A DNA stretch of 47,873 bases from an uncultured Holophagales bacterium (GTDB lineage: Bacteria; Acidobacteriota; Thermoanaerobaculia; UBA5066): the NCBI GenBank assembly GCA_964384675.1, contig CAYLNK010000009.1, positions 1 to 47,873 on the forward strand. Direction: 5' to 3'. Both the position numbers and the translations under genes were made by a program. Shown here piece by piece: positions 7,019-25,459 of this stretch (positions are counted from its first letter, which is position 1; every line of letters starts with the position of its first letter). The notes beneath the pieces were generated by a model, which had not been told where the DNA came from, searched no databases, and saw only the letters and a program-made list of their open reading frames with translations.

Positions 7019-7029
7019 GATCGGCGCCC

Positions 7030-7683: not shown

Positions 7684-7689
7684 GGCAGA

Positions 7690-9547: not shown

Positions 9548-9560
9548 CTTCTCTCCCTGC

Positions 9561-10172
9561 CTAGTACAGCGACCTGTTGGCCTGGACGCTCCAGACCGGG
9601 CTGACCCGGACCTGGAGCAGGACGGGAGGCTTCAGCGCGGGGTTCGAGCCCACCATCCGGGTGTGGGTGAGGCTCAGCGTGGCGATTCCGGCGATCTGGC
9701 CGGCGGCCGAGGCGAAGGTCCGGGTTCTCAGGTCACAGCCGAGCCAACGCACCGTCGAGGCCGACGTGCCGTTGGCGGACCAGAATGCCGACTGCACCTC
9801 TCCGGCGTTCGTCGTGGAGAAGGCGATGTCGCCGGGCAGAGTCAGCGTCTGGATCACCGCGTCGGTCGAGGTGTCGGGTACGTTGTCCTGGTTCGTGTCC
9901 GCCACGAGCTGGAACTGGCGGGCCGCGCCGTCGAAGACCACGAAGATCGAGGTCCCCCGGGTCTGCATCTCGGAAGGGGCACGCGACATCAGGGTCGTCA
10001 GGTCGGAAGCCGCGGACGCGAGGCGCTGCTTCTGGATCGCCTTGAGGCCCTCGACCGAGGCGATCACGAAGGTCAGGCCGAGGACCAGCACCACAGCCAG
10101 GAGCTCGATCATGCTGAAGCCGCGCCGTCCGGAGCGCCGCCCAACCGCCGAAACCCGTGCCCTGACCGTCAC
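9561..10172 (-). CDS. FimT/FimU/GspH-like minor pilin
   Basis: The prepilin motif RRG|FSMIELLAVVLVLGLTFVIA lies about 72 aa into the track ORF (9561..10340). An internal GTG near 10172, preceded by GGGAGG, gives a 16-aa leader, so that start is preferred. First gene of the minor-pilin operon. Confidence 0.55.
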   Translation of the reverse strand: MTVRARVSAVGRRSGRRGFSMIELLAVVLVLGLTFVIASVEGLKAIQKQRLASAASDLTTLMSRAPSEMQTRGTSIFVVFDGAARQFQLVADTNQDNVPDTSTDAVIQTLTLPGDIAFSTTNAGEVQSAFWSANGTSASTVRWLGCDLRTRTFASAAGQIAGIATLSLTHTRMVGSNPALKPPVLLQVRVSPVWSVQANRSLY

Positions 10173-10204
10173 GCGTGGAATCCTCCCTTGCCACGGGCGA
10201 CAAA

Positions 10205-10218
10205 GCCATTCTCGTGCC
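10205..10218 (-). promoter_or_regulatory. Candidate σ54-type (-24/-12-like) promoter cGGCAC-gagaa-TGGC about 29 nt upstream of the FimT-like start
   Basis: The reverse-complement strand reads GGCACGAGAATGGC with GG-N10-GC spacing as in σ54 promoters. Related CGGCAC-N5-TTGA elements sit at the same distance upstream of both major pilin genes. Sequence-only call. Confidence 0.25.
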
Positions 10219-10224
10219 GCCGCG

Positions 10225-10247
10225 ATTGGCCCGATGGCAAGGCCAAT
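10225..10247. promoter_or_regulatory. Inverted repeat ATTGGCC-N9-GGCCAAT in the divergent minor-pilin / pilT control region; candidate regulator binding site
   Basis: Read from the sequence (attggcccgatggcaaggccaat). Lies in the 243-bp divergent intergenic region. Confidence 0.3.
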
Positions 10248-10308
10248 TGGATCAATACCTTGGCGTGGTTTCGCGATCTGCGACCCTGTCTCGGCCCCGG
10301 AGTCGATC

Positions 10309-10323
10309 GTTACGATTCGTAAC
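10309..10323. promoter_or_regulatory. Near-perfect 15-bp palindrome GTTACGA-t-TCGTAAC; candidate operator upstream of the HEAT-pilT gene
   Basis: Read from the sequence. AT-rich relative to the genome, about 95 nt upstream of the 10415 start. Confidence 0.3.
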
Positions 10324-10414
10324 ACGTCTCGTTCGCTCACGGCGATGCTCCCTTCGTTCCGGCCACGGTGATTCGGCTACGATTATCCTCTTCCCGGATC
10401 CGAGGAGGTCGAGC

Positions 10415-12934
10415 GTGGTCCTAGACAAGCTCCGGAAGGGACTGAGAGCCGAGCCCCCCGTCGTCGCGGCCCTGCGGGCCCACCAGTGGTCCTCGGAGGG
10501 TCAGAAACGCGACCTGATCCAGAAGTTCAAGCTGGCCCCGGACCTGGAGATCGACGAGGTCGTCTGGACCGCGCTCGACCAGACGGCCGAGATCCGCGAG
10601 GCCGGGATCGAGGTCCTGAAGCGGCGACCCGACCCGCACGCCGTCCTCGAGGCGCTGGTCCCTCTCCTCCGGACCCGCTCCGAGGCCGCTCGCCGGGCCG
10701 TGCAGCGGTTCCTCCAGGAGGTGGCCGGGGACCAGCTGGGCCCGTTCCTCTCCCAGCAGTGCGAGGAGGGGGACGACTTCGGCCGGCTCGCCGCCGTGGA
10801 GCTCGCCAAGAGCCTGCCCGGCGACGGCGCCATCTCGATCTACAAGCGGCTGGTGCGGGACCCGAACCTGGGGATCCGCCGCCGGGCGCTGAAGGCCCTC
10901 AGCGAATCGACTCTCCCCGGCGCCGCCGCGCTCGCCTCGAACATGGCGGTCAAGCTGCTCGAGGACGAGGACGAGGAGATCCGGCTCGCCGCGCTCGCGC
11001 TGCTGGAGAAGAACCCCGACGAGGCTCACATCGGCTCGATCCTGCAGCTCGCCGCGGCGGGCGCCGGGCGGATCGCGGACGCGGCGTTCTCGGCCCTGCG
11101 GCGCCTCCTGCCGCTCTCCAAGGCGGACCACACCAACGACATCCTGCCTCTCCTCGCCAGCGGCAGCGCCAGCGTCCGTACCGGAGCCCTCTCGCTCCTG
11201 GAGCGGACCCCGCCCGACCCCCTCGCCCGGGCGTTCGTCGAGCAGTTCAACGGCTCCTTCGTCTGGGTCCGCGACCGGGCGCTCGAGACCCTGAACCGCG
11301 CGTTCCCGACCTTCCTCCCGGCGCTCCTGCGCCTGACGGCGGATCCGGACCGGAAGGTCGCCGGCGGAGCCGCGGAGCTCGCGCTCATCGCTCCCGACCC
11401 ACGAGCCCTGCCGGTCTGGATGAACCTGCTCGACAACCCGGACTGGTGGATCAGGAGCCGCGCGCTCGAGAGCCTCGGCAAGTACGGCGCGGGCCGGGAC
11501 GACGTCTACCAGAAGCTGGCGGGGGCCCTGCGCGTGCCCGAGCTGACCCTCTCGGCGGCGTCCGCGCTCGGTGAGTTCGGCGACCCCCGGGGCCTGCAGC
11601 CGTTGGGACAGGCGTTCCAGGCGGCGATGGCCGCACCCGACGAGCAGCTCGAGATCCTCGACTCCATGGCCAAGCTCGGCGCGAAGGACCCGAGGGTGGG
11701 TGCCTACCTCGGGAACGTCTCCAAGCACCCGTCGTTCGACGAGAGAGTCCGCGAGAGGGCGCGTGACCTGGTGGGCCGGCTCCAGGGCGCCGCGGCGATG
11801 GCCGCCATCCCCTCGGTCGCGTCGAGCCCGCAGCGGCTCGACCTGGCCAACGTCGAGAACGCCAGGCTGGTCGACTTCCTCGCGGACACCGTCGCCAAGG
11901 GCGCGTCCGACTTCCACCTGGCCACCGGTTTCGCTCCCCACCAGCGGATCAACGGCGCGCTGACCTCCCTCGACGTGCCCGGATTCTCACGGGAGCGGTC
12001 GCGCCAGCTGCTCAAGCAGGTCCTGACCGACGAAGAGTGGCGCCGGCTCGAGCAGGATCGGCAGCTCGACATCTGCCTGAAGGTGGCCGGGCTGGGGCGC
12101 TTCCGGGCGAACCTCTTCTCTCAACGGAGCGGCTTCGACGCGTCCTTCCGCGTCATCCCGCACTCGCTCCCGACGCTGTCCGAGCTCGGGCTGCCCCAAT
12201 CCGCCTGGGAGCTGACCCGGTACACGCAGGGGCTCGTCCTGGTGACCGGCCCGGCCGGCTGCGGCAAGTCGACCACGCTCGCGACGCTGCTCGACCGCGT
12301 GAACGAGACACGGCGCGGCCACATCATCACGGTCGAGGACCCCGTCGAGTTCGTGCACGTGAACAAGGAATCCCTGGTGAACCAGCGGCAGGTGCCCCAG
12401 CACACGAAGTCGTTCGCCCGGGCCCTGAAGGCCGCGCTCCGCGAGGACCCGGACGTCATCATGATCGGCGAGATGCGCGACCTCGAGACGATCTCGCTCG
12501 CGATCTCCGCGTCGGAGACGGGGCACCTCGTCTTCGGCACCCTCCACACGACGACCGCGACCGGCACGATCGACCGCGTGATCAACGCCTTCCCGGCCGG
12601 CCAGCAGGGACAGATCCGCGCCATGATCGCCGACTCGCTGAAGGCGGTCATCTCGCAGGCTCTGCTCCCGAGGCGGGGCGGAGGCGGGCGCGTGGCGGCG
12701 TTCGAGATCCTGCGCGGCACGCAGAACGTCGCCGCTCTCATCCGCGAGGCGAAGACCCACCAGCTGCCGTCCGCGCTCCAGACGGGACAGCTCGCCGGAA
12801 TGGTCACGATGGACCAGGCGCTGATCCGGCTCGCCGAGGACGGCAAGGTCGACCTCGAGGCCGCGTACGACCGGGCCCTGAAGAAGGAGCCCTTCGAGAA
12901 GCTGCTCAACGAGGAAAGGCAGGCCCTGGCATGA
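10415..12934 (+). CDS. PilT/PilU-family twitching-motility ATPase with an N-terminal HEAT-repeat extension of about 480 aa
   Basis: C-terminal half has Walker A GPAGCGKST, Asp box VIMIGEMRD, His box GHLVFGTLHTTTA and the PilT signature AALIREAK. The N-terminal half shows repeated HEAT/PBS-lyase-like units (PDPHAVLEALVPLL, DPNLGIRRRALKAL, DEEIRLAALALL, NPDWWIRSRALESL). Start chosen at GTG 10415, 6 nt after GAGGAGG; the track start at 10175 lacks an SD. Confidence 0.8.
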   Translation: MVLDKLRKGLRAEPPVVAALRAHQWSSEGQKRDLIQKFKLAPDLEIDEVVWTALDQTAEIREAGIEVLKRRPDPHAVLEALVPLLRTRSEAARRAVQRFLQEVAGDQLGPFLSQQCEEGDDFGRLAAVELAKSLPGDGAISIYKRLVRDPNLGIRRRALKALSESTLPGAAALASNMAVKLLEDEDEEIRLAALALLEKNPDEAHIGSILQLAAAGAGRIADAAFSALRRLLPLSKADHTNDILPLLASGSASVRTGALSLLERTPPDPLARAFVEQFNGSFVWVRDRALETLNRAFPTFLPALLRLTADPDRKVAGGAAELALIAPDPRALPVWMNLLDNPDWWIRSRALESLGKYGAGRDDVYQKLAGALRVPELTLSAASALGEFGDPRGLQPLGQAFQAAMAAPDEQLEILDSMAKLGAKDPRVGAYLGNVSKHPSFDERVRERARDLVGRLQGAAAMAAIPSVASSPQRLDLANVENARLVDFLADTVAKGASDFHLATGFAPHQRINGALTSLDVPGFSRERSRQLLKQVLTDEEWRRLEQDRQLDICLKVAGLGRFRANLFSQRSGFDASFRVIPHSLPTLSELGLPQSAWELTRYTQGLVLVTGPAGCGKSTTLATLLDRVNETRRGHIITVEDPVEFVHVNKESLVNQRQVPQHTKSFARALKAALREDPDVIMIGEMRDLETISLAISASETGHLVFGTLHTTTATGTIDRVINAFPAGQQGQIRAMIADSLKAVISQALLPRRGGGGRVAAFEILRGTQNVAALIREAKTHQLPSALQTGQLAGMVTMDQALIRLAEDGKVDLEAAYDRALKKEPFEKLLNEERQALA

Positions 12935-14049
12935 GCGCCGGCGCACCGACACCCCAGGCCTCCGAAGCCCGTCGCATCGACGCCCTCCTGCGTCTCGTCC
13001 TCGAGAAGAAGGCCTCGGACCTCCACCTCGCCGTCGGCTCGCCGCCGATGATCCGCGTCGACGGCGAGCTCGAGCGGGTGAAGTGGCGCACCCTCACCGA
13101 GGAGGAGTTCGTGAACCTGATCGGCCCGATCGCGCCCCCGAAGCTGTTCGCGGCGTGGCGGGAGACGGGCGACACGGATTTCGCCTACGCGATGGGCAAC
13201 CGCGCCCGCTTCCGCGTCAACGTCTTCAAGCAGGAGCACGGGCCCGCCGCCGTCCTCCGGATGATCCCGCCCCGCGTGCTGACGATCGAGGAGCTCGGCA
13301 CGCCGCCCCAGGTGGCGAGCGTCGCGAAGGTGCCGCGCGGCCTCGTCCTGGTCACCGGGCCCACCGGCTCGGGGAAGTCGACCACGCTCGCGGCTCTCCT
13401 GGACTGGGTGAACCGGACTCGCGCGTTTCACATCGTGACGATCGAGGACCCGGTGGAGTTCCTCCACGTCTCCCAGAAGTCGATCATGACGCACCGCGAG
13501 GTCGGCTTCGACACGATGTCGTTCTCGGAGGCGCTGAAAGCGGCGCTGCGCGAGGACCCGGACGTCGTCCTCGTCGGCGAGCTGCGCGACCTCGAGACCA
13601 TGACCAACGCGCTCCAGGCCGCGGAGACCGGCCTCCTGGTCTTCGGCACGCTTCACACGAACTCGGCGTCCAAGGCGATCGACCGCCTCATCGACGGCTT
13701 CCCGTCCGAGGAGCAGGACCAGACGCGGACGGTGCTGGCCGAGGTGCTGAAGGCGGTCGTGGCCCAGGTCCTCCTGAAGAAGAAGGGAGGCGGCCGCATC
13801 CCGGCCTTCGAGGTGCTCCGGGGCTCGCCGGCCCTGTCGAACGCGATCCGGGAGGGGAAGACTTCCATGATCACCACCCTGATCCAGACGGGGAAGTCCC
13901 AGGGGATGATCTCCATGGACCAGTCGCTCGCCGACCTCGTGGTGAACGACATCGTCGACATCGAGGAGGCGTTCGACAAGGCGCTCGAGAAGGACGCCTT
14001 CCGGGCCCTCGTGGAGAAGAGGCGCGCGGCGGCGAACGCCGCCACCTGA
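12931..14049 (+). CDS. pilT: Type IV pilus retraction ATPase PilT (372 aa)
   Basis: ATG at 12931 overlaps the upstream TGA (ATGA). Walker A GPTGSGKST, DVVLVGELRD, GLLVFGTLHTNSA, AIREGK. The track ORF 12037..14049 carries a spurious N-terminal extension in the same frame. Confidence 0.9.
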   Translation: MSAGAPTPQASEARRIDALLRLVLEKKASDLHLAVGSPPMIRVDGELERVKWRTLTEEEFVNLIGPIAPPKLFAAWRETGDTDFAYAMGNRARFRVNVFKQEHGPAAVLRMIPPRVLTIEELGTPPQVASVAKVPRGLVLVTGPTGSGKSTTLAALLDWVNRTRAFHIVTIEDPVEFLHVSQKSIMTHREVGFDTMSFSEALKAALREDPDVVLVGELRDLETMTNALQAAETGLLVFGTLHTNSASKAIDRLIDGFPSEEQDQTRTVLAEVLKAVVAQVLLKKKGGGRIPAFEVLRGSPALSNAIREGKTSMITTLIQTGKSQGMISMDQSLADLVVNDIVDIEEAFDKALEKDAFRALVEKRRAAANAAT

Positions 14050-14062
14050 GGCGGCGACCGGG

Positions 14063-15877
14063 TCACGCCACGGGGAGCGACAGGACGAACCGGGCCCCCG
14101 GAAGGACGCGGCCCCGCTCGACCGCCACCGAGCCACCGTGGAGCGCCGCGATCTTCGCGACGAGCGCGAGGCCGAGGCCGGTGCCCGTCTCCTTGGTCGA
14201 GGTGAACGGCACGAACAGCTTCGCCGTGACCTCGACGGGAACTCCCTGGCCGTCGTCCTCCACCGCGATCCGCGCCAGCCCGGCGGTCACACCTTCCCCC
14301 AGGACGACGACGCGGCCGCCGCCCCCTTCGGGGCCCGGATCTCCGGCGCCTGCGGCCGCCGCCTCTCGCGCGTTGCGCACCAGGTTCACGAGCGCCCGGC
14401 GCAGGAGCGCTCCGTCGCCCCGGACCACCGCGAACGTCCCGTCGGTGTCGAACGCGATCGCGGAGTCGGCCATCCGTTCCTCCTCCACGATCTCCCGCGC
14501 GAGGGGTCCGAGATCGACCGGACCGGGAGTGAACCGCCCGGGCCGCGCGAAGAACAGGAAGTCTCCGGTCACGGTCGCGATGTGGTCGGCCTCGGCGCGG
14601 ATGGCCGCGAGGTGCCGCGCCCGCGCCTTCGGGTCCTCGGTCGACGCGGCCAGGCGGGCCCAGCCCTGCAGGGTCGCGGTGGCGTTCCGGAACTCGTGCG
14701 CGATGCCGGCCGACATCTCGCCGAGGGCCGCGAGCTCCCGCCGTGCCGAGAGCTCCCTCTCCAGACGGCTCGTCCGGGTGCGGTCCTCGAGGAACACCAG
14801 CGTGCCGAGGGGCCGGTCGGCCGCATCGACGACCGGAGCCGCGGTGACGACGAGCCGGCGTCCGCTCGTCTCCTCCCCGAGGACGAACTCGCGACCGAGC
14901 GTGGCCTCTCCGCGGGAGGCGCCGTGCACCGCCCCCTCGAGGACCGGATAGGCGGCGAGCGCGCGCGCCGCGGCCCCGCCGACGGCCTCGGGCGGCAGAT
15001 CCAGGAGCCGCCGGGCCGGCTCGTTCGCCTGCGACAGCGCCCCGCCGGCGTCGATGACGAGGAGCCCGCCCGGGTGCGATCGGACCAGGGTCTCCGCCGT
15101 CACCGCCAGGGCGTCGGCCCGCTCCTTCTCACGGCGTCTCAAGTCGTCGAGCTCGGTGGTCCGCTTGCGCAGCTCCTCGATGGTGCGTGCGAACGTGGAG
15201 ATCGCGTGGTCCGCCTCGTCCCGCCCCGGCTCCTCCGGCAGGAGGCCCGAGGCGTCGCGGGCCGTCTCGGCGAGCGCCTCGATCGGGGAGAGGAGGCGCC
15301 GGAGGAACGGGATCACCAGGAGCCCGAGCGTGACGGCGGCGAGCGGCACGACGAAGGAGAGGATCCGGACGTTGCGCTCGGCCTCCGAGAGGAGCGAGCC
15401 GTCGTACCCGATGCGCAGGATCCGCGTCCCCCCGGCGAAGGACGCGGTGACGATCGCGAAGCCCGGCCCTCCCTCCGACGTCGCGCCGGCCGCCACGGTC
15501 TCACCGGGGAGCGGCACCTCGCCCGCGGAGAGCGTCTCCTCTCCCTGCGCGACGTCGGGCAGGAACGGCGCCTCGGCGAGACGGGCCCCTTCCGCGTCGT
15601 ACAGGCCGGCATGGCGGGCTCCCGCGTCGCGCAGGAGGGTCGCGACCCGGGCGTCGCCGCCGAGCGCGAAGGAGGCGTCGCCCGACAGGAGGAGGCGCTC
15701 GACGACGATCCGCGTCTCGGCGGAGAGCCGGGCCAGATGCTCCCGTTCGGCCCACGCCGTGACGTTCCGGAGGAGGACGAGGGTGAGGCCGGAAAGGAAC
15801 AGCAGGAAGAGCAGGCCTCCGACGACGATGTGCCGGACCTCGCGCTCGAAACGGCGGTCCCGGGGCCCGTCGCTCAC
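14063..15877 (-). CDS. Sensor histidine kinase: two TM helices flanking a periplasmic domain, HAMP/PAS-like region, HisKA and HATPase_c domains
   Basis: H-box GIAHEFRNATATL, N-box LVNLVRNAREAA, G-boxes DDGQGVP and GTGLGLALV. GTG start overlaps the pilD stop (GTGA). No response regulator gene is in the window. Confidence 0.85.
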   Translation of the reverse strand: MSDGPRDRRFEREVRHIVVGGLLFLLFLSGLTLVLLRNVTAWAEREHLARLSAETRIVVERLLLSGDASFALGGDARVATLLRDAGARHAGLYDAEGARLAEAPFLPDVAQGEETLSAGEVPLPGETVAAGATSEGGPGFAIVTASFAGGTRILRIGYDGSLLSEAERNVRILSFVVPLAAVTLGLLVIPFLRRLLSPIEALAETARDASGLLPEEPGRDEADHAISTFARTIEELRKRTTELDDLRRREKERADALAVTAETLVRSHPGGLLVIDAGGALSQANEPARRLLDLPPEAVGGAAARALAAYPVLEGAVHGASRGEATLGREFVLGEETSGRRLVVTAAPVVDAADRPLGTLVFLEDRTRTSRLERELSARRELAALGEMSAGIAHEFRNATATLQGWARLAASTEDPKARARHLAAIRAEADHIATVTGDFLFFARPGRFTPGPVDLGPLAREIVEEERMADSAIAFDTDGTFAVVRGDGALLRRALVNLVRNAREAAAAGAGDPGPEGGGGRVVVLGEGVTAGLARIAVEDDGQGVPVEVTAKLFVPFTSTKETGTGLGLALVAKIAALHGGSVAVERGRVLPGARFVLSLPVA

Positions 15878-17058
15878 GGCAGGAGGCGTGCTCCGGGAAC
15901 GGCGGGATCGCCGAGGAGGTAGGCGAGACAGAGCCGCCCCGTCGCGAAGGCAACCAGCGATCCCGCGGCGAGGAACACGCCGAAGGGAATGTCCGACCGT
16001 CCGACGAGGACGAGGATCCCGGACTCGAGCCTCTCGGCTCTCGCCGAGACGACGCGGAAGAAGTGGTCGCCTTCCTCCAGCATCAGGCGGTGGGACTCGG
16101 TGGCCGCTCCGAGCCGGGACCGCCGCTCGGCCAGACGGAGAAAGGCGACGAGCGGCCGGCCCGCCTTACCCGACGACCGGTACGGCGCGCCGACCCGGGC
16201 GGCTCCGGGGACGTCGCGCCAGACGGGGCCCGCGGCCTTCACGATCCCTCCGGCCACCAGGAGGCCCTCCCGCTCGGCGGCGGCTCGCGCCGCCGACGGG
16301 TCGCGGCCCGACGCGCGGAACCGCGACGCCCACCTCGCCCTCCGGGCCAGCAGGTAGGCACCTCCGCCGAGAGCCCCCGCCGCGGAGGCGAAGAGGAGGG
16401 TCAGGAGCACGCCGGCCGCCCCTCCGACGGCCCCGATCATCGCGATCATGTGGACGTCGCCCAGGCCCATCCCTTCCGCGGCGCGCAGCCACTCGTACGC
16501 CTTCCGAACCGCGAGGAGCAGGAGCGCCCCCAGCGCCGCGCCGCCGACCGACTCCACGAGATGGCTCGTCGACAGGGCGAGCGGCGCGCCGCCGGGCCGG
16601 AAGAGACTCGCCGCGTCCCTCGCCGCGGCGAGGAGGAGGCCGGCGGCGAGCACGCCGAGCGTGATCTCGTCGGGCAGGATCCGCGCCTCGAGATCGGTCG
16701 CCACCAGGACCACCGCGGCGAAGGAGAGGAGGCCGAAGGCGACGGCCGAAGGCGAGGGTCCGAAGAGGACGGCGCCCAGGAGGAAGAGGAGCGCCACGGT
16801 CAGCTCCACCAGGGGATAGCGGATCGAGATCGGCCGGCGACAGCGGCGGCAACGACCGCGCAGCACGAGCCACGACAGGACCGGGACGTTGTCGAGGGCG
16901 GCAATGGGATGCCCGCAGCCCGGGCAGCGGGAGCGCGGCCGGACCACCGACTCGCCTCGCGGGAGGCGGTGGATGCAGACGTTCGCGAAAGAGCCGAACA
17001 CGGCCCCGAACGCGAAGAACGAGACGCGAAGGACGAGTGTCACGCCGGGATCGATCAC
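15874..17058 (-). CDS. pilD: Prepilin peptidase / N-methyltransferase PilD (A24 family) with an about 110-aa insertion in a cytoplasmic loop
   Basis: N-terminus FGAVFGSFANVCIHRLP. Tetracysteine motif CPGCGHPI...CRRCRRPI. GLGDVHMIAMIGA. C-terminal IPFGVFLAAGSLVAF. GTG start overlaps the stop of the upstream YfhO-like gene. Confidence 0.85.
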   Translation of the reverse strand: MIDPGVTLVLRVSFFAFGAVFGSFANVCIHRLPRGESVVRPRSRCPGCGHPIAALDNVPVLSWLVLRGRCRRCRRPISIRYPLVELTVALLFLLGAVLFGPSPSAVAFGLLSFAAVVLVATDLEARILPDEITLGVLAAGLLLAAARDAASLFRPGGAPLALSTSHLVESVGGAALGALLLLAVRKAYEWLRAAEGMGLGDVHMIAMIGAVGGAAGVLLTLLFASAAGALGGGAYLLARRARWASRFRASGRDPSAARAAAEREGLLVAGGIVKAAGPVWRDVPGAARVGAPYRSSGKAGRPLVAFLRLAERRSRLGAATESHRLMLEEGDHFFRVVSARAERLESGILVLVGRSDIPFGVFLAAGSLVAFATGRLCLAYLLGDPAVPGARLLP

Positions 17059-19364
17059 GGCAGCCTCGGTTCCGGCCCGCCGGCCAGGAGGAGGCCCGCG
17101 AGGATCACGGCGGAGATGACCGAGAGGGCCGCACCGACACGGAAGGAGAGAGGACGGTACCGCAGCACCACCCGGTGCTCGCCGGCGGGAACGGTGAAGC
17201 CGATGAAGAAGAGGTCGGTCCGCACCGCACGCACCGGAAGGCCGTCCACCTCGACGCGCCAGCCCGGATCCCAGCTCCGGGTCAGGACGACCGACGCGGG
17301 CTCGGAGGACACGGTGGAGATCTCGGTCTCCTCCGCGAGGTCCCGGACGAAGCGCAGTGCCGAAAAGCCCTTGCCGCTGCGAGGCGGCGGGATCGGCCCC
17401 GGGTCATCGGCGAAGAGGGCCAAGTCCTCCGGGTCGAATCCGGGCCTCGTCAGCGCCGCGATCACGACCTCGTCCGCGGCGACCCTGCCGCCGCGGGCGA
17501 AGAACGCCCGGCCGAGCGGCCCGGCCAGGTTGTAGGCGTAGACGCCGGGCCCGCGCCCGGCGGGTCCGCGCGTGGAGCGTGGCGGCGGCGACGGCGACAC
17601 GACCAGGCGAGCGTCGCACAGACGGAGGATCGAGTCGGGGATACGTCCCGCGAGGGAGTCGTGGAGAAGAGCGAGCCGGAGCAGGCTCTGGAGGGGCGAT
17701 CCCGACGTCGCGGCCGGGATCCCGGCATCGAGGTTGGTGTAGCCGGCCAGGAGTACCCGTTCCTTGAGCGGTGTGGTCGGGGCCCAGGCCCCGCCCGGCA
17801 TCGCGTAGCCGACGACGGCCCGCGCGTCGAGCGTGTCCACGAGCAGCCGGCCCGGAGCGGAGCCGAACATCCGGCGCACCTCCTCGGTGGACGAGCGCAG
17901 CGCGGCCGCGGGCACCGCCTCGAGGGGGTCCCGGGCCGTGGCGGGCAGCGTGGCGACGAGGAGCGCCACTACCAAGTAACCGGTCGCCGGCGCGCCGAGC
18001 CCCGTCCTTCCCCGCAGCGCGAGGAGGAGGACCGCGGCACCGAGGGCCCCGAACGCGAGGCGGGCCCGGCCAGGGTCCCGATCCCGGAGCGACCCGAGCG
18101 CCGCGACCGCGAGCAGGACGACCACGCACACCGTCAGGCCGGCGCCGATCCAGGCTCGCCCCACCCAGGCTCGCTCCCGGGCGAACCCGTCGTCTTCCGG
18201 GCGCGCACAGACGCGAAACCGGCCATAGAGGAAACCGTCCAGACCGGCGCCGGCGGCCACGGCGAGGCCGAGATGCGTCAGCAGGAACCACCGACCCGGG
18301 AACCTGAGGCCTCGGAGCAGCCCGGTCCGGTACAGGAGAGGAGCGAGCGCTCCCCGGGACCCGAGCGCGAGGAGGAGGCCGATCACCGCGAGGCCGAGGA
18401 GACCCAGGAGCAGGCGCGGGCGGCCCGGGAATCCCGCGGCCGCGCCCGCCACGAGCAGGAGGGCCAGCGGACCGAGCGCGAGCGAGGCGAGGTAGCCCCC
18501 CCGCTCGCCCGCCGGGGTTCGTGTGGCCGCCGGCGTCGGAGGCGCGACGAGGTCGGCGAGCGCGCCCGATCCGACGGGACGGGCCATCGCCTCCTCGGGC
18601 GAGGCATTCGAGATCCGGCCCGTCCTCACCACGAGCTCGAGAAACGGAAGCGACGCCGCGGCGGTGAGGGCGAACGCCAGACCGAGCCCGAGGGCGGCTC
18701 TCGCGGCGGCCCGGCCCGGACGGATCGAAGGAACGCCCGTGCCCTCGGACCAGGTCAGGGCCGCGAGACCCAGGGCCGCCGCGGCCCCCGCGAGCGCCAC
18801 GCTGGGCTCACCCGCCAGGAACGCGAGGGCGACAGGAAGGGCGAACCCGGCCAGCCCACCGCCCGACACCAGCCGGCGCGCCCCGACGAAGATCCAGGGC
18901 AGCCACGCCGCCGCGCAGGCGTTGTTGTAGTAGGGGAAGAGAGAGAGGAACGCGCCGGCACCCGCGTAGACCACGCCGCCCGCGAGCGACGCCGGGCGCG
19001 AAGATCCCAGGCTGTCGAGCCAGCGGGCCATCCCCGCCGAGGCGAACGCGAGATGGAGCGTGATCGCGAGGAGAGCGCCCCATGGCATCCCGAGGAGGAA
19101 GGGCAAGTCCCCCGGATAGAGCACACCGGACTGGAGCTGGGCCAGCCAGGGCTCGCCGCAGCCGGCCAGGGGGTTCCAGAGGGGGATCTCGCCAGCGGCC
19201 CAACGCGCGGCGGTGTACGCCTTCATCGGCCAGAAGAAATCGGGCAGGTCGCCACGAGCTGGGATCCGTGCGCTCCAGGCCGCCGGACCACCCGAGATCG
19301 CGCCCACCAGGACGCCGAGGAGTCCTCCGAACGCCGTGACACGTCCCGGCGACTCCCCGCTCAT
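17055..19364 (-). CDS. YfhO-family polytopic membrane protein (predicted GT-C glycosyltransferase)
   Basis: 769 aa with more than 12 predicted TM helices. N-terminal motif FFWPMKAYTAARWAAGEIPLWNPLAGCGEPW. C-terminal YfhO-like WDPGWRVEVDGLPVRAVRTDLFFIGFTVPAGEHRVVLRYRPLSF followed by a final TM. Co-transcribed with pilD. Confidence 0.65.
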   Translation of the reverse strand: MSGESPGRVTAFGGLLGVLVGAISGGPAAWSARIPARGDLPDFFWPMKAYTAARWAAGEIPLWNPLAGCGEPWLAQLQSGVLYPGDLPFLLGMPWGALLAITLHLAFASAGMARWLDSLGSSRPASLAGGVVYAGAGAFLSLFPYYNNACAAAWLPWIFVGARRLVSGGGLAGFALPVALAFLAGEPSVALAGAAAALGLAALTWSEGTGVPSIRPGRAAARAALGLGLAFALTAAASLPFLELVVRTGRISNASPEEAMARPVGSGALADLVAPPTPAATRTPAGERGGYLASLALGPLALLLVAGAAAGFPGRPRLLLGLLGLAVIGLLLALGSRGALAPLLYRTGLLRGLRFPGRWFLLTHLGLAVAAGAGLDGFLYGRFRVCARPEDDGFARERAWVGRAWIGAGLTVCVVVLLAVAALGSLRDRDPGRARLAFGALGAAVLLLALRGRTGLGAPATGYLVVALLVATLPATARDPLEAVPAAALRSSTEEVRRMFGSAPGRLLVDTLDARAVVGYAMPGGAWAPTTPLKERVLLAGYTNLDAGIPAATSGSPLQSLLRLALLHDSLAGRIPDSILRLCDARLVVSPSPPPRSTRGPAGRGPGVYAYNLAGPLGRAFFARGGRVAADEVVIAALTRPGFDPEDLALFADDPGPIPPPRSGKGFSALRFVRDLAEETEISTVSSEPASVVLTRSWDPGWRVEVDGLPVRAVRTDLFFIGFTVPAGEHRVVLRYRPLSFRVGAALSVISAVILAGLLLAGGPEPRLP

Positions 19365-19402: not shown

Positions 19403-19424
19403 GGCCCCCGGTTTCCCGGGGGCC
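19403..19424 (-). terminator. GC hairpin GGCCCCCGG-tttc-CCGGGGGCC immediately downstream of the first pilin gene; putative partial intrinsic terminator
   Basis: 9-bp perfect stem read from the sequence. On the transcribed strand it is followed by CUUUCACUU, a weak U-tract. Sits between the pilin stop (19454) and the YfhO-like start (19364). Confidence 0.35.
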
Positions 19425-19453: not shown

Positions 19454-19945
19454 CTACTTCTGCTGGCCTTCCGCGTACTGGATGAACTGGCCGTCGACGA
19501 AGATGATGTCGTTGTTGAAGCTGGTCGTCGGGCCGTACCCGGCAACATCCGGCCCCGTGGTCGTGTCCTTGCCGAAGGAGACGAGGATGTAGTCCTGGTT
19601 CGAGTTGCCCGTGGTGTACTTGATCGTCTCGTTCCAGCCATCCTGGGTCGGAACGATCCGGATGTACGTGGGGGAGAGCTGGCCGATCACAGTCGTGCTC
19701 ATCGCGGCGGTCGGATAGCCCAGGCCGCTGGGCAGGGTGGCGGCAGCCGCCGGGTACTGGTTGTTGTCGACGGCGTACGCCTCGGCCGCGGTGCCGATGC
19801 TGCGCATGTCACCCATCGTCCTCTTCTGCTTCGCGCGCTGGATCGCGTTCAGCAGGTTGGGAATCGCGATGGCCACGATGATGCCGATGATCGCGACGAC
19901 GATCAGCAGCTCGATGAGGGTGAAACCCTTCCGATTACGCTTCAT
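19454..19945 (-). CDS. Major (pseudo)pilin, GspG-type (T2SS major pseudopilin-like / PulG-type type IV pilin)
   Basis: MKRNRKG|FTLIELLIVVAIIGIIVAIAIPNLLNAIQRAKQKRTMGDMRSIGTAAEAYAVDNNQYP, then QDGWNETIKY...DYILVSFGKDTTTGPDV...NDIIFVDG, matching the GspG family layout. AAGGAGG SD. The track ORF starts 9 codons earlier. Confidence 0.8.
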   Translation of the reverse strand: MKRNRKGFTLIELLIVVAIIGIIVAIAIPNLLNAIQRAKQKRTMGDMRSIGTAAEAYAVDNNQYPAAAATLPSGLGYPTAAMSTTVIGQLSPTYIRIVPTQDGWNETIKYTTGNSNQDYILVSFGKDTTTGPDVAGYGPTTSFNNDIIFVDGQFIQYAEGQQK

Positions 19946-19969
19946 GTAGATAGCCTCCTTGACTGCGAG

Positions 19970-19986
19970 CATTCAAGAGCGGTGCC
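19970..19986 (-). promoter_or_regulatory. Candidate σ54-like promoter cGGCAC-cgctc-TTGAa about 27 nt upstream of the pilin-1 ATG
   Basis: The same CGGCAC-N5-TTGA element is found 29 nt upstream of pilin-2 (about 20650-20663). It matches the σ54 -24 box (TGGCAC) but the -12 reads TTGA rather than TTGC, so the call is tentative. Confidence 0.3.
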
Positions 19987-20125: not shown

Positions 20126-20620
20126 TCACTTCTGGGTCCCGTCCGGGTACTGCACGAATCCCCCGTCGACCAGGATGATGTCGTCGTTGAAGTTCGTCGA
20201 TGCCCCGTAGGTGGGAGACGACTGCTGCGCCTGGTCTCGCCCGGTGGAACGGAGGGCGTAGTCCGCGCCGTCAGCCGAGGTGGTGTACAGGAAGAACCCG
20301 AGCCACGGATCGTAGAGCGGAACCGCCCGCATGTAATTGGGCTGGAGCTTCCCGATGACGCCCGGCGTGAAGCTGGCGGTCGGGAGCGAGAGGCCGGTGG
20401 GCAGGGTGAAGACCGCCGCCGCGGACGGGTAGGTGCTGTGGTCGACGCTGTACGCCTCGAGGGCCGTGGCGATCGCCCGCAGGTCGGCCATCGCCCTCTT
20501 CTGCCGCGCCCTCTGGATGGCGTTGAGGAAATTGAATACCGCGATCGCGATGATGATGCCGATGATCGTCACGACGACCAACAGCTCGATCAACGTGAAG
20601 CCACGCCTGTGCTTCCTCAT
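20126..20620 (-). CDS. Major (pseudo)pilin paralog, GspG-type
   Basis: MRKHRRG|FTLIELLVVVTIIGIIIAIAVFNFLNAIQRARQKRAMADLRAIATALEAYSVDHSTYP...DDIILVDGGFVQYPDGTQK. ATG at 20620 with a GAGGGG SD. The track ORF carries a spurious 52-aa Arg/Pro-rich N-terminal extension. Confidence 0.8.
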   Translation of the reverse strand: MRKHRRGFTLIELLVVVTIIGIIIAIAVFNFLNAIQRARQKRAMADLRAIATALEAYSVDHSTYPSAAAVFTLPTGLSLPTASFTPGVIGKLQPNYMRAVPLYDPWLGFFLYTTSADGADYALRSTGRDQAQQSSPTYGASTNFNDDIILVDGGFVQYPDGTQK

Positions 20621-20649
20621 GGTGTTGCCCCTCGATTCGAAGTCAGGAA

Positions 20650-23600
20650 TCAAGAAGCGTGCCGGGCCTCGACGAGGGTCCGGAAGTCCCGGTGCCGCTG
20701 CCAGACGAGCTCGAGCGCCTTCCGGAAGGCCGGGACGTGCCGGAGCGGGACGAGCGCCCGGTCCCGCTCGATCCACGGCGCGTTCCAGTACCCGAGGTCC
20801 GCGGCCTTCCCGATCCAGGCGACGGCGGCGTCAGGCTGCGAGAGCGCGGCGCGCACCTTCGCGATCCAGTACGTGAAGGTCCCGTCCGCAGCGGCTCCCG
20901 GCTCGGCGGCGGCCAGCTGCTGCTCGGCGCGCTCCCGGTCGCCGGTCTGGGCCAGGACGAAGGCGTAAACCCCCCGTGCGATGAAGTTGTCGGGGTCGAG
21001 CTGGTAGCCGCGCTCGACCCACTCGCGCGCCCGGCCGAGGTCCCCGGCGTAGTAGTGGACGATCCCCTTCCAGTAGTGGAAGTGCCCGAACCGGGGCCGC
21101 TCGGCGAGGAGCGCGTCGGCCTCGGCGTGCGCCTCGGGCAGCCTCTCCTGGTAGATCAGCGCCGAGAGGCGCGGGATGGAGTGAGCCCAGGCCGGATCGA
21201 TCGACCCGGCCGCCTCCTGCGCCGCCAGACACCGGTCCCACAGCCCGGCGTTCTTGTAGAGGTAGGCGAGCGTGGCGTGCGCCGGGGCGTAGCCGGCGTG
21301 CTCGGCGAGCACGGCGTAGAGGTCGACCAGGGCGCGCTCGTTCTGTCCGCGTTCGATCCTTACCAGAGCGAGGATCCGGCGCGCCTCGGCGGCGAGCGGC
21401 CCCCGGGGATCGGCCTGGAGCGCCTCGGAGACGGCGGCTTCGGCGCGGTCGTACAGCCGCACGTCTCCGACGATCTCGGCGGTCTCGCTCTGATGGCGAC
21501 CGAGACGGGTGAGCAGGCGAACCCGCTCCCGGAGCGCGACGTCCCCCGTCAGCCGGTCGGCGAGGGCGACCGCGCGCTCGAGGAGGGGGCCGGCCTCGCG
21601 CGGGCTGCGCCGCACGGCGTTCGCCGCCGCCTGCTCGAGGGCGGCGATCGCCCGGGGGAACTCCCGCCCCTTCTCGAAATGGACGGCGAGGACCGCCGCG
21701 ATCGAGGCCGCCCGTTCCACCGACGCCGGGTCGTGGCCCCCTTCGTGACGACCCGCCAGGTACCGGCCCAGGGCGGAATGCCACGCCGTCCGCCTCTTCG
21801 GCGGGATCGAGCCGTAGAGCGCGTCCTCGTAGAACGCGTGGACGAACCGGAAGCCCGAGGAGAGCGTGCCGTCGGGGTGCTCCAGCTCGCCCGTCGGCTC
21901 CACCAGCCCGTGCACCCGGTGCAGCCGGTCGAGCCGGTCCTCCACGTCGAGCTCGTCGGCGCCCAGCACCGAGGCGACCGCGCCGGAATCGAACCGCTCG
22001 CCCTGGACGCTCGCCACCTGGAGGAGGCGGCGGTCCTCCTCGTCCAGGCGGTCGAAGCGGGAGAGGATGACGCCGGTGATCCCCTCGGGCACCTCGTCCC
22101 CGAGGTCGTCCAGCGAGCGGGCCGCCACCATCCGTCCGGCGTCCTCCCGGAGCGCCCCGAGGGCCCTCAGGTGGCGCAGGACGTTCACCACGAAGAGGGG
22201 GTTCCCCTCGGTCTTCCCGTGCACGAAACGGACGACCTCCGGCGCGACGCCCATCCCGAGCTCTCGCATGAGGAAGGCCTCCACCTCGGGTTCCGTGAAC
22301 GGCGGCGGGGCCACCTCCGCGCCCGACGACGACAGCCCCCGCAGGGCCTGCCGGAGGGGATGGCGGGTCACCTCGATCTCGGAGCGCCGGTACGTCGCCA
22401 CGACCAGCAGCCTCATCTCGACGATCCGGCGGGCCAGGTACGCCAGCAGGTCGACGCTGGCGTTGTCCGCCCAGTGGAGGTCCTCGAGCACCAGCACGAT
22501 CGGGCGCACCGTCGAGAGCGCCGCGAGGAAGTCGCTCAGCTCCCGCGGCATCCGGTCCTGGGCCGGAGGGGCCGCGCCCGCGGCCTCCAGCCGCTCGTCG
22601 AGGGTCGCCCCGACGAGGAGAGCGGGAAAAAGCCGCGCCCAGGACGGAGCGAGCGACCGCAGGAACCCGGCCACGCGTCCCTCCTCCAGCCCGTTCACGA
22701 GGCGGGAGACGATCTCCAGGAACGGCAGGTACGCCTCGCCCGAGCCGAAATGCTCGGAGCAGCGCCCCACCGCGGTCAGGATCTCCGGCCGGGCCCCGGT
22801 CTCGCGCGCCAGGAAGGCGTCCACGAGGGTCGTCTTGCCCGAGCCCGGCTCTCCGGAGACGAAGAGGAACCCGCCCCGGCCGCGCAATGCCGCGAGGAGC
22901 CGGCTGTTCATCACGTTGAGAGGCCCGTCCCGGCCGATCGGCCCCGGGACGACCGCGGGGGCGAAGCTCACCCCCGTCGAATCGACCGAGAGCGTCGTGA
23001 TCGCGGGGAGCGGCTTCGTCTCGGCTCGCGCGTCGGGCGCGCGCGGGGCTCCCCGCAAGAGCGGAGCGAGCGCCTGGACCAGCTCCCCCACCGTCTGGTA
23101 GCGCCGGGCCGGGTCCTTCTCGAGCGCCTTGAGGACGGCCGCCGAGATGGGAAGGGGGATGGCGGCATCCGCGGCGTGAAGCGGGCGGGGCAGCTGGGTG
23201 AGGTGCTTCATCAGGACCGACATCACCGAGGCCCCGGAGAACGGGACGAAGCCCGTCAGCATCTCGTAGGCGATCACCCCGAGCCCGTAGACGTCGCTCC
23301 TCGGGTCGGCCGGACGCCCCTGGGCCTGCTCCGGGCTCATGTAGTGAGGCGTTCCGACGGCGTGGTCGCCGGTCAGCCCCGGCGACGGGTCGTCCTCCGA
23401 GAGCGAGGCGAGGCCGAAGTCGGCCACCTTCACGGCCCCGCGCGAGAGGAGGATGTTCGCCGGCTTCAGGTCGCGGTGGACGATCCCGGCCTCGTGGGCC
23501 GCCCCGACGGCCGCCCCGACCGCCTCCAGCACGTCCGCGACGCGGTCGAACGCCAGCTTTCCGTCGCGGGACAGCTCGTCCGCGAGGCTGCCGCCCTCGC

Positions 23601-23901
23601 ACAGCTCCATGACGAGGTACGCCTCCTCGCCCGAAAGGCAGAAGTCGTGGACCACGACGACGTTCGGGTGGAGGAGCCGCCCGGCGGCGCGCCCCTCGCG
23701 CCGGAAGCGCTCCAGGGCCTGGCCGGCCCGATCGAGCTCGCCTCCGAGGAGCTTGATCGCGACGTTCCGGCCCATCTCCTCGTGCCGGGCTTCGTAGACC
23801 ACGCCTCGACCGCCCGCGCCGAGCCGCCGGACCAGCCGGTACCGCCCGTCGAGCAGGCGTCCCTCGCGAGGGTCACCGCAGGTGTTCGAGAGCCCATCCA
23901 T
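20650..23901 (-). CDS. STAND-type Ser/Thr protein kinase (PknK-like): N-terminal kinase, AAA/NB-ARC-like NTPase and C-terminal TPR repeats
   Basis: Kinase motifs GAGGRGVVYEA, AIKLL, HRDLKPANILL, DFGLA. Walker A GEPGSGKTT. Walker B VLVLEDLHWAD. C-terminal TPR-like repeats. 1083 aa. Confidence 0.85.
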   Translation of the reverse strand: MDGLSNTCGDPREGRLLDGRYRLVRRLGAGGRGVVYEARHEEMGRNVAIKLLGGELDRAGQALERFRREGRAAGRLLHPNVVVVHDFCLSGEEAYLVMELCEGGSLADELSRDGKLAFDRVADVLEAVGAAVGAAHEAGIVHRDLKPANILLSRGAVKVADFGLASLSEDDPSPGLTGDHAVGTPHYMSPEQAQGRPADPRSDVYGLGVIAYEMLTGFVPFSGASVMSVLMKHLTQLPRPLHAADAAIPLPISAAVLKALEKDPARRYQTVGELVQALAPLLRGAPRAPDARAETKPLPAITTLSVDSTGVSFAPAVVPGPIGRDGPLNVMNSRLLAALRGRGGFLFVSGEPGSGKTTLVDAFLARETGARPEILTAVGRCSEHFGSGEAYLPFLEIVSRLVNGLEEGRVAGFLRSLAPSWARLFPALLVGATLDERLEAAGAAPPAQDRMPRELSDFLAALSTVRPIVLVLEDLHWADNASVDLLAYLARRIVEMRLLVVATYRRSEIEVTRHPLRQALRGLSSSGAEVAPPPFTEPEVEAFLMRELGMGVAPEVVRFVHGKTEGNPLFVVNVLRHLRALGALREDAGRMVAARSLDDLGDEVPEGITGVILSRFDRLDEEDRRLLQVASVQGERFDSGAVASVLGADELDVEDRLDRLHRVHGLVEPTGELEHPDGTLSSGFRFVHAFYEDALYGSIPPKRRTAWHSALGRYLAGRHEGGHDPASVERAASIAAVLAVHFEKGREFPRAIAALEQAAANAVRRSPREAGPLLERAVALADRLTGDVALRERVRLLTRLGRHQSETAEIVGDVRLYDRAEAAVSEALQADPRGPLAAEARRILALVRIERGQNERALVDLYAVLAEHAGYAPAHATLAYLYKNAGLWDRCLAAQEAAGSIDPAWAHSIPRLSALIYQERLPEAHAEADALLAERPRFGHFHYWKGIVHYYAGDLGRAREWVERGYQLDPDNFIARGVYAFVLAQTGDRERAEQQLAAAEPGAAADGTFTYWIAKVRAALSQPDAAVAWIGKAADLGYWNAPWIERDRALVPLRHVPAFRKALELVWQRHRDFRTLVEARHAS

Positions 23902-23926: not shown

Positions 23927-25459
23927 GTGATCCCCAAGCCGCCGTTCGTGTCCGACCTCACGCCCGAGCTCGAGAAGGCGGAGTTCGAGAAGCTCAAGCC
24001 GAAGCTGCTCGAGGTGTGGGACTCGATCTCCCTGCGCGACGCCGAGCCGCACACCTCGGTCGTCGTGCCGTCCCTCACGCTCGACCAGAGCGAGCTCTCC
24101 AAGCTCGACGGCGCGAGCTTCTACGAGGAGCGGCTCCTGTTTCTCCTGATCCGGCTCCGCAACCCCCGGGCGCGGGTCGTCTTCGTGACGTCGCAGCCGG
24201 TCCACCCGCTCATCCTCGAGTACTACTTCCAGCTCCTGGTCGGCATCCCCGCGAGCCATGCCCGCGCCCGGCTCACGATGCTCTGCGCCCACGACGCGTC
24301 GCCCCGGTCGCTGACCGAGAAGATCCTGGAGCGCCCCCGGCTCCTGGAGCGGATCCGGGCCGCCATCCCCGACCGCTCGCGGGCCTATCTCACGGTCTTC
24401 AACTCGACCCCTTTCGAGCGGAAGCTGGCGGTCCTGCTGGGCGTCCCGATGAACGGCGTCGACCCCGACCTGGCGTACTGGGGGACCAAGTCCGGCAGCC
24501 GGAGAGTGTTCCTGGAGGCCGGCGTCGCACTTCCCCTCGGCATGGAGGACCTCCAGACCGAGGACGACGTCCACCGCGGACTCGTCGATCTGAAGGCCGC
24601 GCGTCCCGGCCTCCGGAAGGCCGTGATCAAGCTGAACGACAGCTTCTCGGGCGAAGGAAACGCGATCTACCGGTACCCCGAGACGCCAGACCCCGGGGCG
24701 ATCCGCGCCGCGATGCAGGAGGTGGAGTTCGCCGTCACCTGGGAGACGTACGACGATTACTTCGCCAAGTTCCGGCGCATGGGCGGCATCGTCGAGGAGT
24801 TCCTCGAGGCCGAGGACAAGCGCTCCCCGAGCGTCCAGCTGCGGGTCGACCCGCACGGCGTCGCCCTGCCCATCTCCACCCACGATCAGATCCTGGGCGG
24901 CAACAGCGGGCAGGTGTTCCTGGGGGCTTCGTTCCCGGCGCGGGACGAGTACCGGATGAAGATCCACGACGCCGCGATGCGGATCGGCGCCGTGCTCGCC
25001 TCCAAGGGGGTCGTCAGCCGTTTCGCGGTGGACTTCCTGGTGACCCGCTCGGCCGCCGAGCCGGAGTGGCAGGTCTACGCTCTCGAGATCAACCTCCGGA
25101 TGGGGGGCACGACCCACCCGTTCCTGGCGCTCCAGTTCATCACCGGAGGCCAGCTCGACCCGAAGTCGGGCCTCTTCATCTCGCCGCGGGGCCTGGCGAA
25201 GTACTACCGCGCCACCGACAACCTGAAGTCCGGCACCTATCGCGGCCTCCTGCCGGAGGACCTGATCGAGATCCTCACGATCAACGGACTCCACTACAGT
25301 CACAACACCGAATCCGGCGTCCTCTTCCACCTGATCGGCGCGCTCTCGGAGTTCGGGAAGCTCGGCATGACCGCAATAGGGAACACCCGGGAGGAGGTCG
25401 AGGACATCTACGCGCGGACCCTCCAGATCCTGGACCGCGAGACCATCTACGGGCACTGA
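23927..25459 (+). CDS. ATP-grasp-fold protein with an N-terminal pre-ATP-grasp-like extension (putative carboxylate-amine/peptide ligase; function unknown)
   Basis: 510 aa. ATP-grasp-like segments VIKLNDSFSGEGNAIY and RFAVDFLVTR...WQVYALEINLRMGGTTHP. Starts with GTG. Strong GC3 bias. Family assignment from motifs only. Confidence 0.5.
   Translation: MIPKPPFVSDLTPELEKAEFEKLKPKLLEVWDSISLRDAEPHTSVVVPSLTLDQSELSKLDGASFYEERLLFLLIRLRNPRARVVFVTSQPVHPLILEYYFQLLVGIPASHARARLTMLCAHDASPRSLTEKILERPRLLERIRAAIPDRSRAYLTVFNSTPFERKLAVLLGVPMNGVDPDLAYWGTKSGSRRVFLEAGVALPLGMEDLQTEDDVHRGLVDLKAARPGLRKAVIKLNDSFSGEGNAIYRYPETPDPGAIRAAMQEVEFAVTWETYDDYFAKFRRMGGIVEEFLEAEDKRSPSVQLRVDPHGVALPISTHDQILGGNSGQVFLGASFPARDEYRMKIHDAAMRIGAVLASKGVVSRFAVDFLVTRSAAEPEWQVYALEINLRMGGTTHPFLALQFITGGQLDPKSGLFISPRGLAKYYRATDNLKSGTYRGLLPEDLIEILTINGLHYSHNTESGVLFHLIGALSEFGKLGMTAIGNTREEVEDIYARTLQILDRETIYGH

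Follow-up and report, generated by a model that had tools for sequence, protein, structure and literature searches.

The DNA under study is a stretch of 47,873 nucleotides (hereafter the window; contig CAYLNK010000009.1 of assembly GCA_964384675.1) from an uncultured Holophagales bacterium, and the gene in question is a yfhO-like gene that lies in a cluster of type IV pilus genes. The gene occupies 17055..19364 on the minus strand and encodes a 769-residue protein with 13 transmembrane (TM) helices that is predicted to be a GT-C glycosyltransferase of the YfhO family. It is followed by pilD (15874..17058, minus strand), encoding a prepilin peptidase/N-methyltransferase of 394 residues (A24_N_bact 1.2e-35, Peptidase_A24 1.2e-13), and the stop codon of yfhO and the GTG start of pilD overlap as GTGA. 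The stop of pilD is overlapped, again as GTGA, by the start of a histidine kinase (HK) gene (14063..15877, minus strand), the third gene of the yfhO–pilD–HK unit, whose product has two TM helices, a periplasmic domain and PAS, HisKA and HATPase domains. Directly upstream of yfhO on the same strand are two genes for GspG/T2SSG-like pilins, both with N_methyl and T2SSG domains. The proximal open reading frame (ORF) spans 19454..19972, or 19454..19945 from its likely start (MKRNRKG^FTLIELL), and the distal ORF spans 20126..20776, or 20126..20620 from its likely start (MRKHRRG^FTLIELL). An intrinsic-terminator-like hairpin (19403..19424, minus strand) with nine G-C pairs and a loop of four, followed by TTTCACTT, is situated between the stop of the proximal pilin gene and the start of yfhO.

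Long spurious ORFs are frequent in the window because its G+C content is about 71%. The yfhO ORF, which begins with ATG, had a coding-like composition (G+C of 0.88 at the third and 0.59 at the second codon position) and a continuous frame plot. A preliminary description of this DNA had reported a polytopic protein of 769 residues carrying two quoted sequence motifs, encoded just downstream of two pilin genes and overlapping pilD as GTGA. All of this was borne out: both motifs are present in an ORF with coding-type codon composition, the junction was read directly, the downstream ORF is a prepilin peptidase by its domain matches and the two ORFs upstream are pilins by theirs.

The YfhO-like protein matched PF09586 (YfhO) in a Pfam hmmscan with a score of 44.8 bits, above the gathering score of 28.5 bits (E 7.8e-12), and all 33 clade members examined matched the same profile. 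The gathering-level match rests solely on residues 691–748, aligned with profile positions 778–835, in the C-terminal block of the protein. The NCBIfam models for PgfM1 and PgfM2 also matched the C-terminal block (E 4e-7). Because direct Pfam matches in the N-terminal half were only marginal, a bridging homologue was used. A clade-profile search of 1.84 billion representative sequences returned 67,237 relatives at E ≤ 1e-3, among them an intermediate homologue (P0178) that matched the clade profile over its full length (E 2e-68) and PF09586 over positions 7–598 (E 2e-29). Since this protein bridges the two profiles, homology to the YfhO family is established for the whole protein. The profile comparison with other families proposed in the preliminary description gave no match to Wzy_C (PF04932) at E ≤ 0.01 on the protein or at E ≤ 10 on its two halves, and no profile match to the PMT, PMT_2 and ArnT-type families (PF02366, PF13231). 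The protein is thus classified, on profile evidence, as a divergent YfhO-family (PF09586) GT-C glycosyltransferase that appears to lie outside the TfpW, PglL/TfpO and PMT/ArnT families.

The topology, evaluated by hydropathy and an AlphaFold model (pLDDT 84.5, pTM 0.89), was consistent with this assignment. The TM helices extend to residue ~478 and are followed by a 255-residue beta-rich periplasmic domain (residues 482–736) and the last TM helix (738–760), so that the 13 helices and the large loop before the last one correspond to the arrangement in Bacillus subtilis YfhO. Periplasmic loop 1 spans residues ~30–94 and includes short helices. The protein has the GT-C membrane fold and its top structural matches are active transferases; a search of PDB sequences with the clade profile gave nothing at E ≤ 10. 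The strongest conservation in the clade falls in the first-loop block RGD38LxDFFWPMK…PLWNPLSGCGEPWLAQLQ. The preliminary description had called this N-terminal motif YfhO-type; the motif is present and is the most conserved block of the clade, but the Pfam profile does not align it and gives only a weak colinear match in that region. D38, in the sequence RGD38LxD41, comes immediately after TM1 at the start of periplasmic loop 1; it is invariant in 40 sequences of 20–49% identity and is among only seven invariant residues. In GT-C enzymes an acidic residue that opens the first external loop usually serves as the catalytic base. The first 100 residues contain no canonical DXD, DDX or EXD motif, and D38 is the candidate catalytic residue of the YfhO-like enzyme.

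The closest homologues (45–76% identity) all come from metagenome-assembled genomes (MAGs) of Thermoanaerobaculia, Holophagales or Acidobacteriota. Gene order was compared in 56 species-level genome loci, which could be evaluated in 44 cases for pilD, in 47 for pilins and in 39 for the yfhO/pilD junction. pilD was the next gene after yfhO in 43 of the 44 loci, the exception being a 39-residue fragment at a contig edge. The junction overlap was ATGA, GTGA or TTGA in 35 of 39 cases and TGATG in two, while the remaining two had no start/stop overlap. Pilin genes were found upstream of yfhO in 41 of 47 loci. Five gene-called contigs from relatives of 42–50% identity had the order pilin–pilin–YfhO–PilD–HK, then PilT and HEAT–PilT on the opposite strand and then minor pilins. 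In one sub-clade, the place of the pilin genes directly upstream of yfhO–pilD is taken by a ribosomal RNA (rRNA) operon (16S, two tRNAs, 23S, 5S) of like orientation; it is complete at L036:4646-9811 and also in loci L001, L016, L020, L026, L027 and L058, and its 3' parts were found upstream of yfhO–pilD in L008, L010, L013 and L053. Because of this replacement, PilD is regarded as the invariant partner of yfhO. The tightest genomic link of yfhO is to pilD rather than to the pilins, which weakens the earlier reading of the locus, in which the gene was placed between the pilin genes and pilD and proposed to modify the pilins, the PilY1 stalk or both. On gene order, yfhO appears to be a conserved member of the pilus (type IV) cluster in Thermoanaerobaculia-type Acidobacteriota.

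The arrangement extends to a sister clade within the Thermoanaerobaculia (P0154 type, 31% identity), which has the same pilin–YfhO–PilD–HK order and an ordinary PilD of 263 residues. One or two extra YfhO-like paralogues of about 780 residues lie upstream of the sister-clade pilins (L063:1-5851, L064:117-4798), and their relationship was recognised by hhalign with a probability of 98.9% over 649 columns. One of these loci (L063, including 11021-12106) adds genes for a PMT_2 protein and for a GT2 fused to a methyltransferase, and a GT87-like gene is inserted between its pilD and kinase genes. As a control, 80 loci of more distant YfhO-like proteins were sampled through a metagenome scan with a single protein (P0162). 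pilD was present in none of the 80, and a pilin gene lay directly upstream in two. One of the 80, L076, has the order pilin – YfhO-like – methyltransferase – PMT_2 – GT2 – PMT_2 – pilin. In the GT2 protein of this locus, two C-terminal TM helices come after the catalytic domain; we take this to be the architecture of a GtrB/ArnC-type polyprenyl-phosphate glycosyltransferase. Judged from its gene content, the island has the look of a cassette for pilin glycosylation by several enzymes, three of them GT-C. The locus (L076:607-9084) is on a metagenome contig of 62% G+C, and its last pilin is ComP_DUS-like.

Two types of potential acceptor are encoded in the window. Both pilin families have kept Ser/Thr residues at mature positions ~66–76, in the expected alpha-beta loop. 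This loop bears glycans in Neisseria and in group IV pilins of P. aeruginosa, and the conserved residues are only suggestive of acceptor sites. The second possible acceptor is a PilY1-like protein of 1642 residues (2105..7033, minus strand) composed of a signal peptide, the start of a vWA domain with its MIDAS motif, a stalk, the remainder of the vWA domain and the PilY1 propeller. The (TPT)n stalk, encoded at about 5459..6751, is 431 residues long, contains 46% Thr and 22% Pro, and interrupts a loop of the N-terminal vWA domain beyond its MIDAS motif (LDLSGSM). The publicly annotated version of the protein (P0121, 1115 residues) begins after the stalk, so that the signal peptide and MIDAS motif are lost from the annotation. 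A PilY1 homologue of 34% identity, which shares a contig with the yfhO–pilD locus L023, has the same N-terminus and a TPT region of about 600 residues at the same place in the vWA domain (L062:2200-3990), with frame changes in the MAG assembly. The insertion is missing from another homologue (P0126). Streptococcal YfhO-family enzymes glycosylate just such Ser/Thr-rich disordered regions (PMC12041528). The preliminary description had placed yfhO near a PilY1 gene with a Thr-rich stalk; the protein and its Thr/Pro stalk are there, but the gene is 10 kb away in a separate gene block.

The surroundings of the unit contain further pilus genes. The minor pilin genes at 7030..10340 on the minus strand encode, by domain matches, three N_methyl proteins and one PilX_N protein (7030..7683). 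The plus strand carries a HEAT-repeat–PilT fusion ATPase (10175..12934), in which PilT is preceded by an N-terminal HEAT-repeat region of about 560 residues, and a plain PilT-type ATPase (12937..14049), assigned by domain matches. This pair is transcribed convergently with yfhO–pilD–HK and is kept in almost all related loci. The minus-strand ORF 12121..14136 was rejected as a gene, since the frame plot puts the real gene, the PilT ATPase, on the plus strand. No PilB, PilC or PilMNOPQ genes were found in the window. Both "major pilins" resemble GspG pseudopilins more than classical PilA (TIGR01710 scores of 80 and 75 bits, cutoff 88.85), and the PilT, PilX and PilY1 proteins around them are of the type IVa pilus kind. 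Identification of the downstream kinase as a PilS with six TM helices, sensing pilin in the membrane, was also rejected, as it has only two TM helices and a periplasmic domain.

Several other features of the region were noted. PilD has an insertion of about 110 residues, apparently cytoplasmic, between its GxGD and C-terminal PFG motifs, which is present in the whole close clade (390–392 residues) and absent from the sister clade (263–264 residues). An ATP-grasp protein (ATP-grasp_IQCH and PGM1_C, a peptide-ligase-like family) is encoded at 23927..25459 on the plus strand and is 72–79% identical across loci L002–L061, far more conserved than the pilins. Its gene divergently adjoins the distal pilin gene in nearly all loci; in the window the two are separated by a gene for a Ser/Thr kinase–AAA_16–TPR protein (20650..23901, minus strand). 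The 1026-residue protein encoded at 33113..36193 (minus strand) has a spermine/spermidine-synthase-like domain and then many TPR repeats; its first ~530 residues carry no domain assignment.

The genomic association between yfhO and the pilus system is well supported by these comparisons, and the biochemical function proposed here is that of a candidate. In this proposal, the yfhO product would be a polyprenyl-phosphate-sugar-dependent O-glycosyltransferase dedicated to the pilus system and made together with PilD to act on a shared pool of membrane-anchored pilins. A cytoplasmic GtrB-type GT2 enzyme, encoded elsewhere in the genome, would place a monosaccharide on undecaprenyl phosphate, and the lipid-linked sugar would flip to the periplasmic face. 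The YfhO-like enzyme would then, by way of D38, move the sugar to Ser/Thr hydroxyls of pilus proteins at the periplasmic face of the inner membrane. The likeliest acceptors would be the membrane-anchored pilins, during their processing by PilD on the cytoplasmic face, and the PilY1 Thr/Pro stalk may be an additional one. We consider this account about as apt to prove right as wrong.

A number of observations weigh against it. The N-terminal half of the protein has a weak, though colinear, match to PF09586 (residues 92–183 against profile positions 87–180, E 0.06), and the corresponding match in relatives had E values of 0.15–3 in two of four tested and was absent in the other two. A G+C-rich hairpin followed by a T-run was found between the proximal pilin gene and yfhO in 43 of 44 related loci. 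Because of this conserved element the pilins are set apart transcriptionally from yfhO; they would form a transcription unit that is separate (or attenuated), next to the translationally coupled unit yfhO–pilD–HK. Pilin adjacency is, moreover, dispensable, because the sub-clade with the rRNA operon, about ten genomes, lacks it. Neither pilin of the window has a Ser/Thr-rich disordered region as found in the acceptors of characterised YfhO-type enzymes. No GT2, GtrA-like or sugar-nucleotide gene was found among the 30 scanned ORFs (nearly all candidate coding) of the 47.9-kb window, and no GtrB- or GtrA-like or sugar-nucleotide gene in the 10-kb flanks of close relatives. A linked GtrB-like synthase, for which the preliminary description had suggested a search, is found in the distant locus L076 but not in the window or in those flanks. 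Since 78 of the 80 sampled distant loci have no link to pili, family membership alone does not predict a pilus acceptor. Finally, the host organism is known from metagenomes only.

It was also considered whether the YfhO-like protein is a general periplasmic glycosyltransferase, acting on many Ser/Thr-rich envelope proteins or on lipopolysaccharide core, exopolysaccharide or a glycolipid, with a position beside pilD that reflects shared regulation or history. The acceptors of characterised relatives are teichoic acids (PMC5836110) or a wide range of membrane-associated proteins (PMC12041528), and such an enzyme would be in keeping with the lack of linked donor genes in the window, with the sub-clade that has yfhO–pilD beside an rRNA operon and no pilins, and with the 78 of 80 distant relatives outside a pilus context. 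However, the start/stop overlap with pilD is kept between clades at only 31% identity, which is hard to explain without a functional partnership, and L076 puts a close relative and a GtrB-like synthase between two pilin genes. To our knowledge, PilD has no role beyond pilin-like proteins, which also counts against a general enzyme. On balance, this explanation is considered rather unlikely.

A narrower alternative, in which the PilY1 Thr/Pro stalk, possibly along with further Thr/Pro linkers, is the acceptor in place of the major pilins, is regarded as doubtful. A mucin-like coat of O-linked sugars would in that case stiffen the stalk and protect it from proteases. The composition and length of the stalk and the Ser/Thr-rich disordered targets of characterised YfhO-type protein glycosyltransferases (PMC12041528) argue for it, as do the comparable stalk, in the same vWA loop, of the 34%-identical PilY1 on a contig carrying yfhO–pilD and the lack of a region of this kind in the window pilins. 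However, the PilY1 gene belongs to a separate same-strand block with two opposite-strand PilT ATPase genes in between. PilD, to whose gene yfhO is coupled, does not have PilY1 as a substrate, and the usual neighbours of yfhO are pilin genes. At least one PilY1 homologue (P0126) is stalkless, and the YfhO-like gene of L076 is adjoined by pilins with no PilY1. A non-catalytic role, in which the protein has lost its activity and assists PilD or the pilins in the inner membrane as a scaffold or chaperone, would account for the tight stoichiometric coupling to pilD, but is very improbable because D38 and the first-loop motif are invariant down to 20% identity even in proteins without a pilus context, the pattern to be expected of an active site that has been kept, and because the best structural matches are active transferases.

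The proposal of a dedicated pilus O-glycosyltransferase could be taken further. YfhO and PilD might form a physical pilin-maturation unit in the inner membrane, in which every prepilin is cleaved and methylated at the cytoplasmic face and O-glycosylated at the periplasmic face before assembly, while the same enzyme gives the PilY1 stalk a mucin-like coat. We hold this extended version to be unlikely; if it were true, pilus glycosylation here would run through a pathway based on a YfhO-type GT-C enzyme, and no earlier case would be known in which translation of a glycosyltransferase is coupled to that of a prepilin peptidase.

Glycosylation of pilins influences how pili function, how phages and the immune system recognise them, and surface chemistry; the known pilin glycosylation enzymes are PglL/TfpO, of the Wzy_C family, and TfpW, an Emb-like GT-C enzyme. 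A search for literature linking YfhO to type IV pili or pilin, or Thermoanaerobaculia to pili, found nothing relevant. Three features of the locus, as predicted from the genomes, appear to be new: a YfhO-type enzyme fixed in the type IV pilus locus of a diderm phylum, the translational coupling of yfhO to a prepilin peptidase gene, and the huge stalk of Thr and Pro carried by the PilY1 protein of this locus. Should the dedicated pilus enzyme be confirmed, it would represent a third, independent enzyme family for pilin glycosylation, co-translated with PilD across a whole Acidobacteria class, and YfhO-type protein O-glycosylation would reach from Firmicutes into diderm bacteria. It would also provide a concrete candidate enzyme for modification of the very long Thr/Pro stalks of PilY1-type adhesins. 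The NTGA overlap of yfhO and pilD is a searchable genomic signature, and D38, the two pilins and the stalk make a simple test set.

Known glycosylation systems resemble the locus in different respects. The TfpO gene lies just downstream of pilA, and TfpO and PglL glycosylate pilins in the periplasm. As Wzy_C O-oligosaccharyltransferases, however, TfpO/PilO and PglL differ in fold and family from the window protein, and they move a preassembled glycan en bloc from undecaprenyl diphosphate. Archaeal AglB, which occurs with PibD/FlaK, is an N-linked, en bloc system of the STT3 family whose genes are not in one translational unit. B. subtilis YfhO, in which a large external loop separates the last two of the 13 TM helices (PMC5836110), and its Listeria homologue share the Pfam family and topology of the window protein. 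Their acceptors, by contrast, are lipoteichoic or wall teichoic acids, which are not expected in a diderm Acidobacterium, and the csbB partner of B. subtilis yfhO is in the same operon, whereas the window has no linked GT2 gene.

TfpW of Pseudomonas aeruginosa Pa5196/PA7 is a GT-C enzyme, encoded downstream of pilA, that transfers sugar from a polyprenyl-phosphate donor to Ser/Thr of pilin (bioRxiv 10.1101/2020.04.19.049825). As in the window, the gene for a membrane GT-C enzyme directly follows that of a major pilin, and both enzymes have a large periplasmic domain towards the C-terminus and an acidic motif in their first periplasmic loop. TfpW nevertheless belongs to another GT-C family, marked by the Emb-like proline motif YX6PFX7P; this motif and the DDX motif are both absent from the window protein, which is thereby set apart from TfpW. 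The loop-1 motif is DDX in TfpW and RGDLxD in the window protein, the C-terminal domain is TPR in the former and beta-rich with a terminal TM helix in the latter, and TfpW is not coupled to pilD, unlike the window yfhO.

The family relationship is with PgtC2 of S. pyogenes and S. pneumoniae and PgfM1/PgfM2 of S. mutans, which belong to the same Pfam family and also combine a GT-C fold with an extracytoplasmic loop that carries an acidic residue or motif. PgtC2 and PgfM1 transfer a single sugar from undecaprenyl-phosphate-sugar, the product of a GtrB-type GT2 synthase (GtrB or PgfS), to Ser/Thr of extracytoplasmic proteins in Ser/Thr-rich regions (PMC12041528). The premise of the preliminary description, in which the acceptors of characterised YfhO proteins are the teichoic acids alone, is therefore out of date. 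This precedent helps the idea of PilY1 stalk glycosylation and tempers the claim that the route is entirely new. The streptococcal enzymes differ in that they are from monoderm Firmicutes, have no link to a prepilin peptidase and modify the disordered, Ser/Thr-rich tails of adhesins and membrane proteins rather than pilus proteins, and their sequence similarity to the window protein is confined to the last ~60 residues. The YfhO-like protein is similar to TfpW in its fold and in the placement of its gene, and shares its family, and probably its chemistry, with PgtC2/PgfM1.

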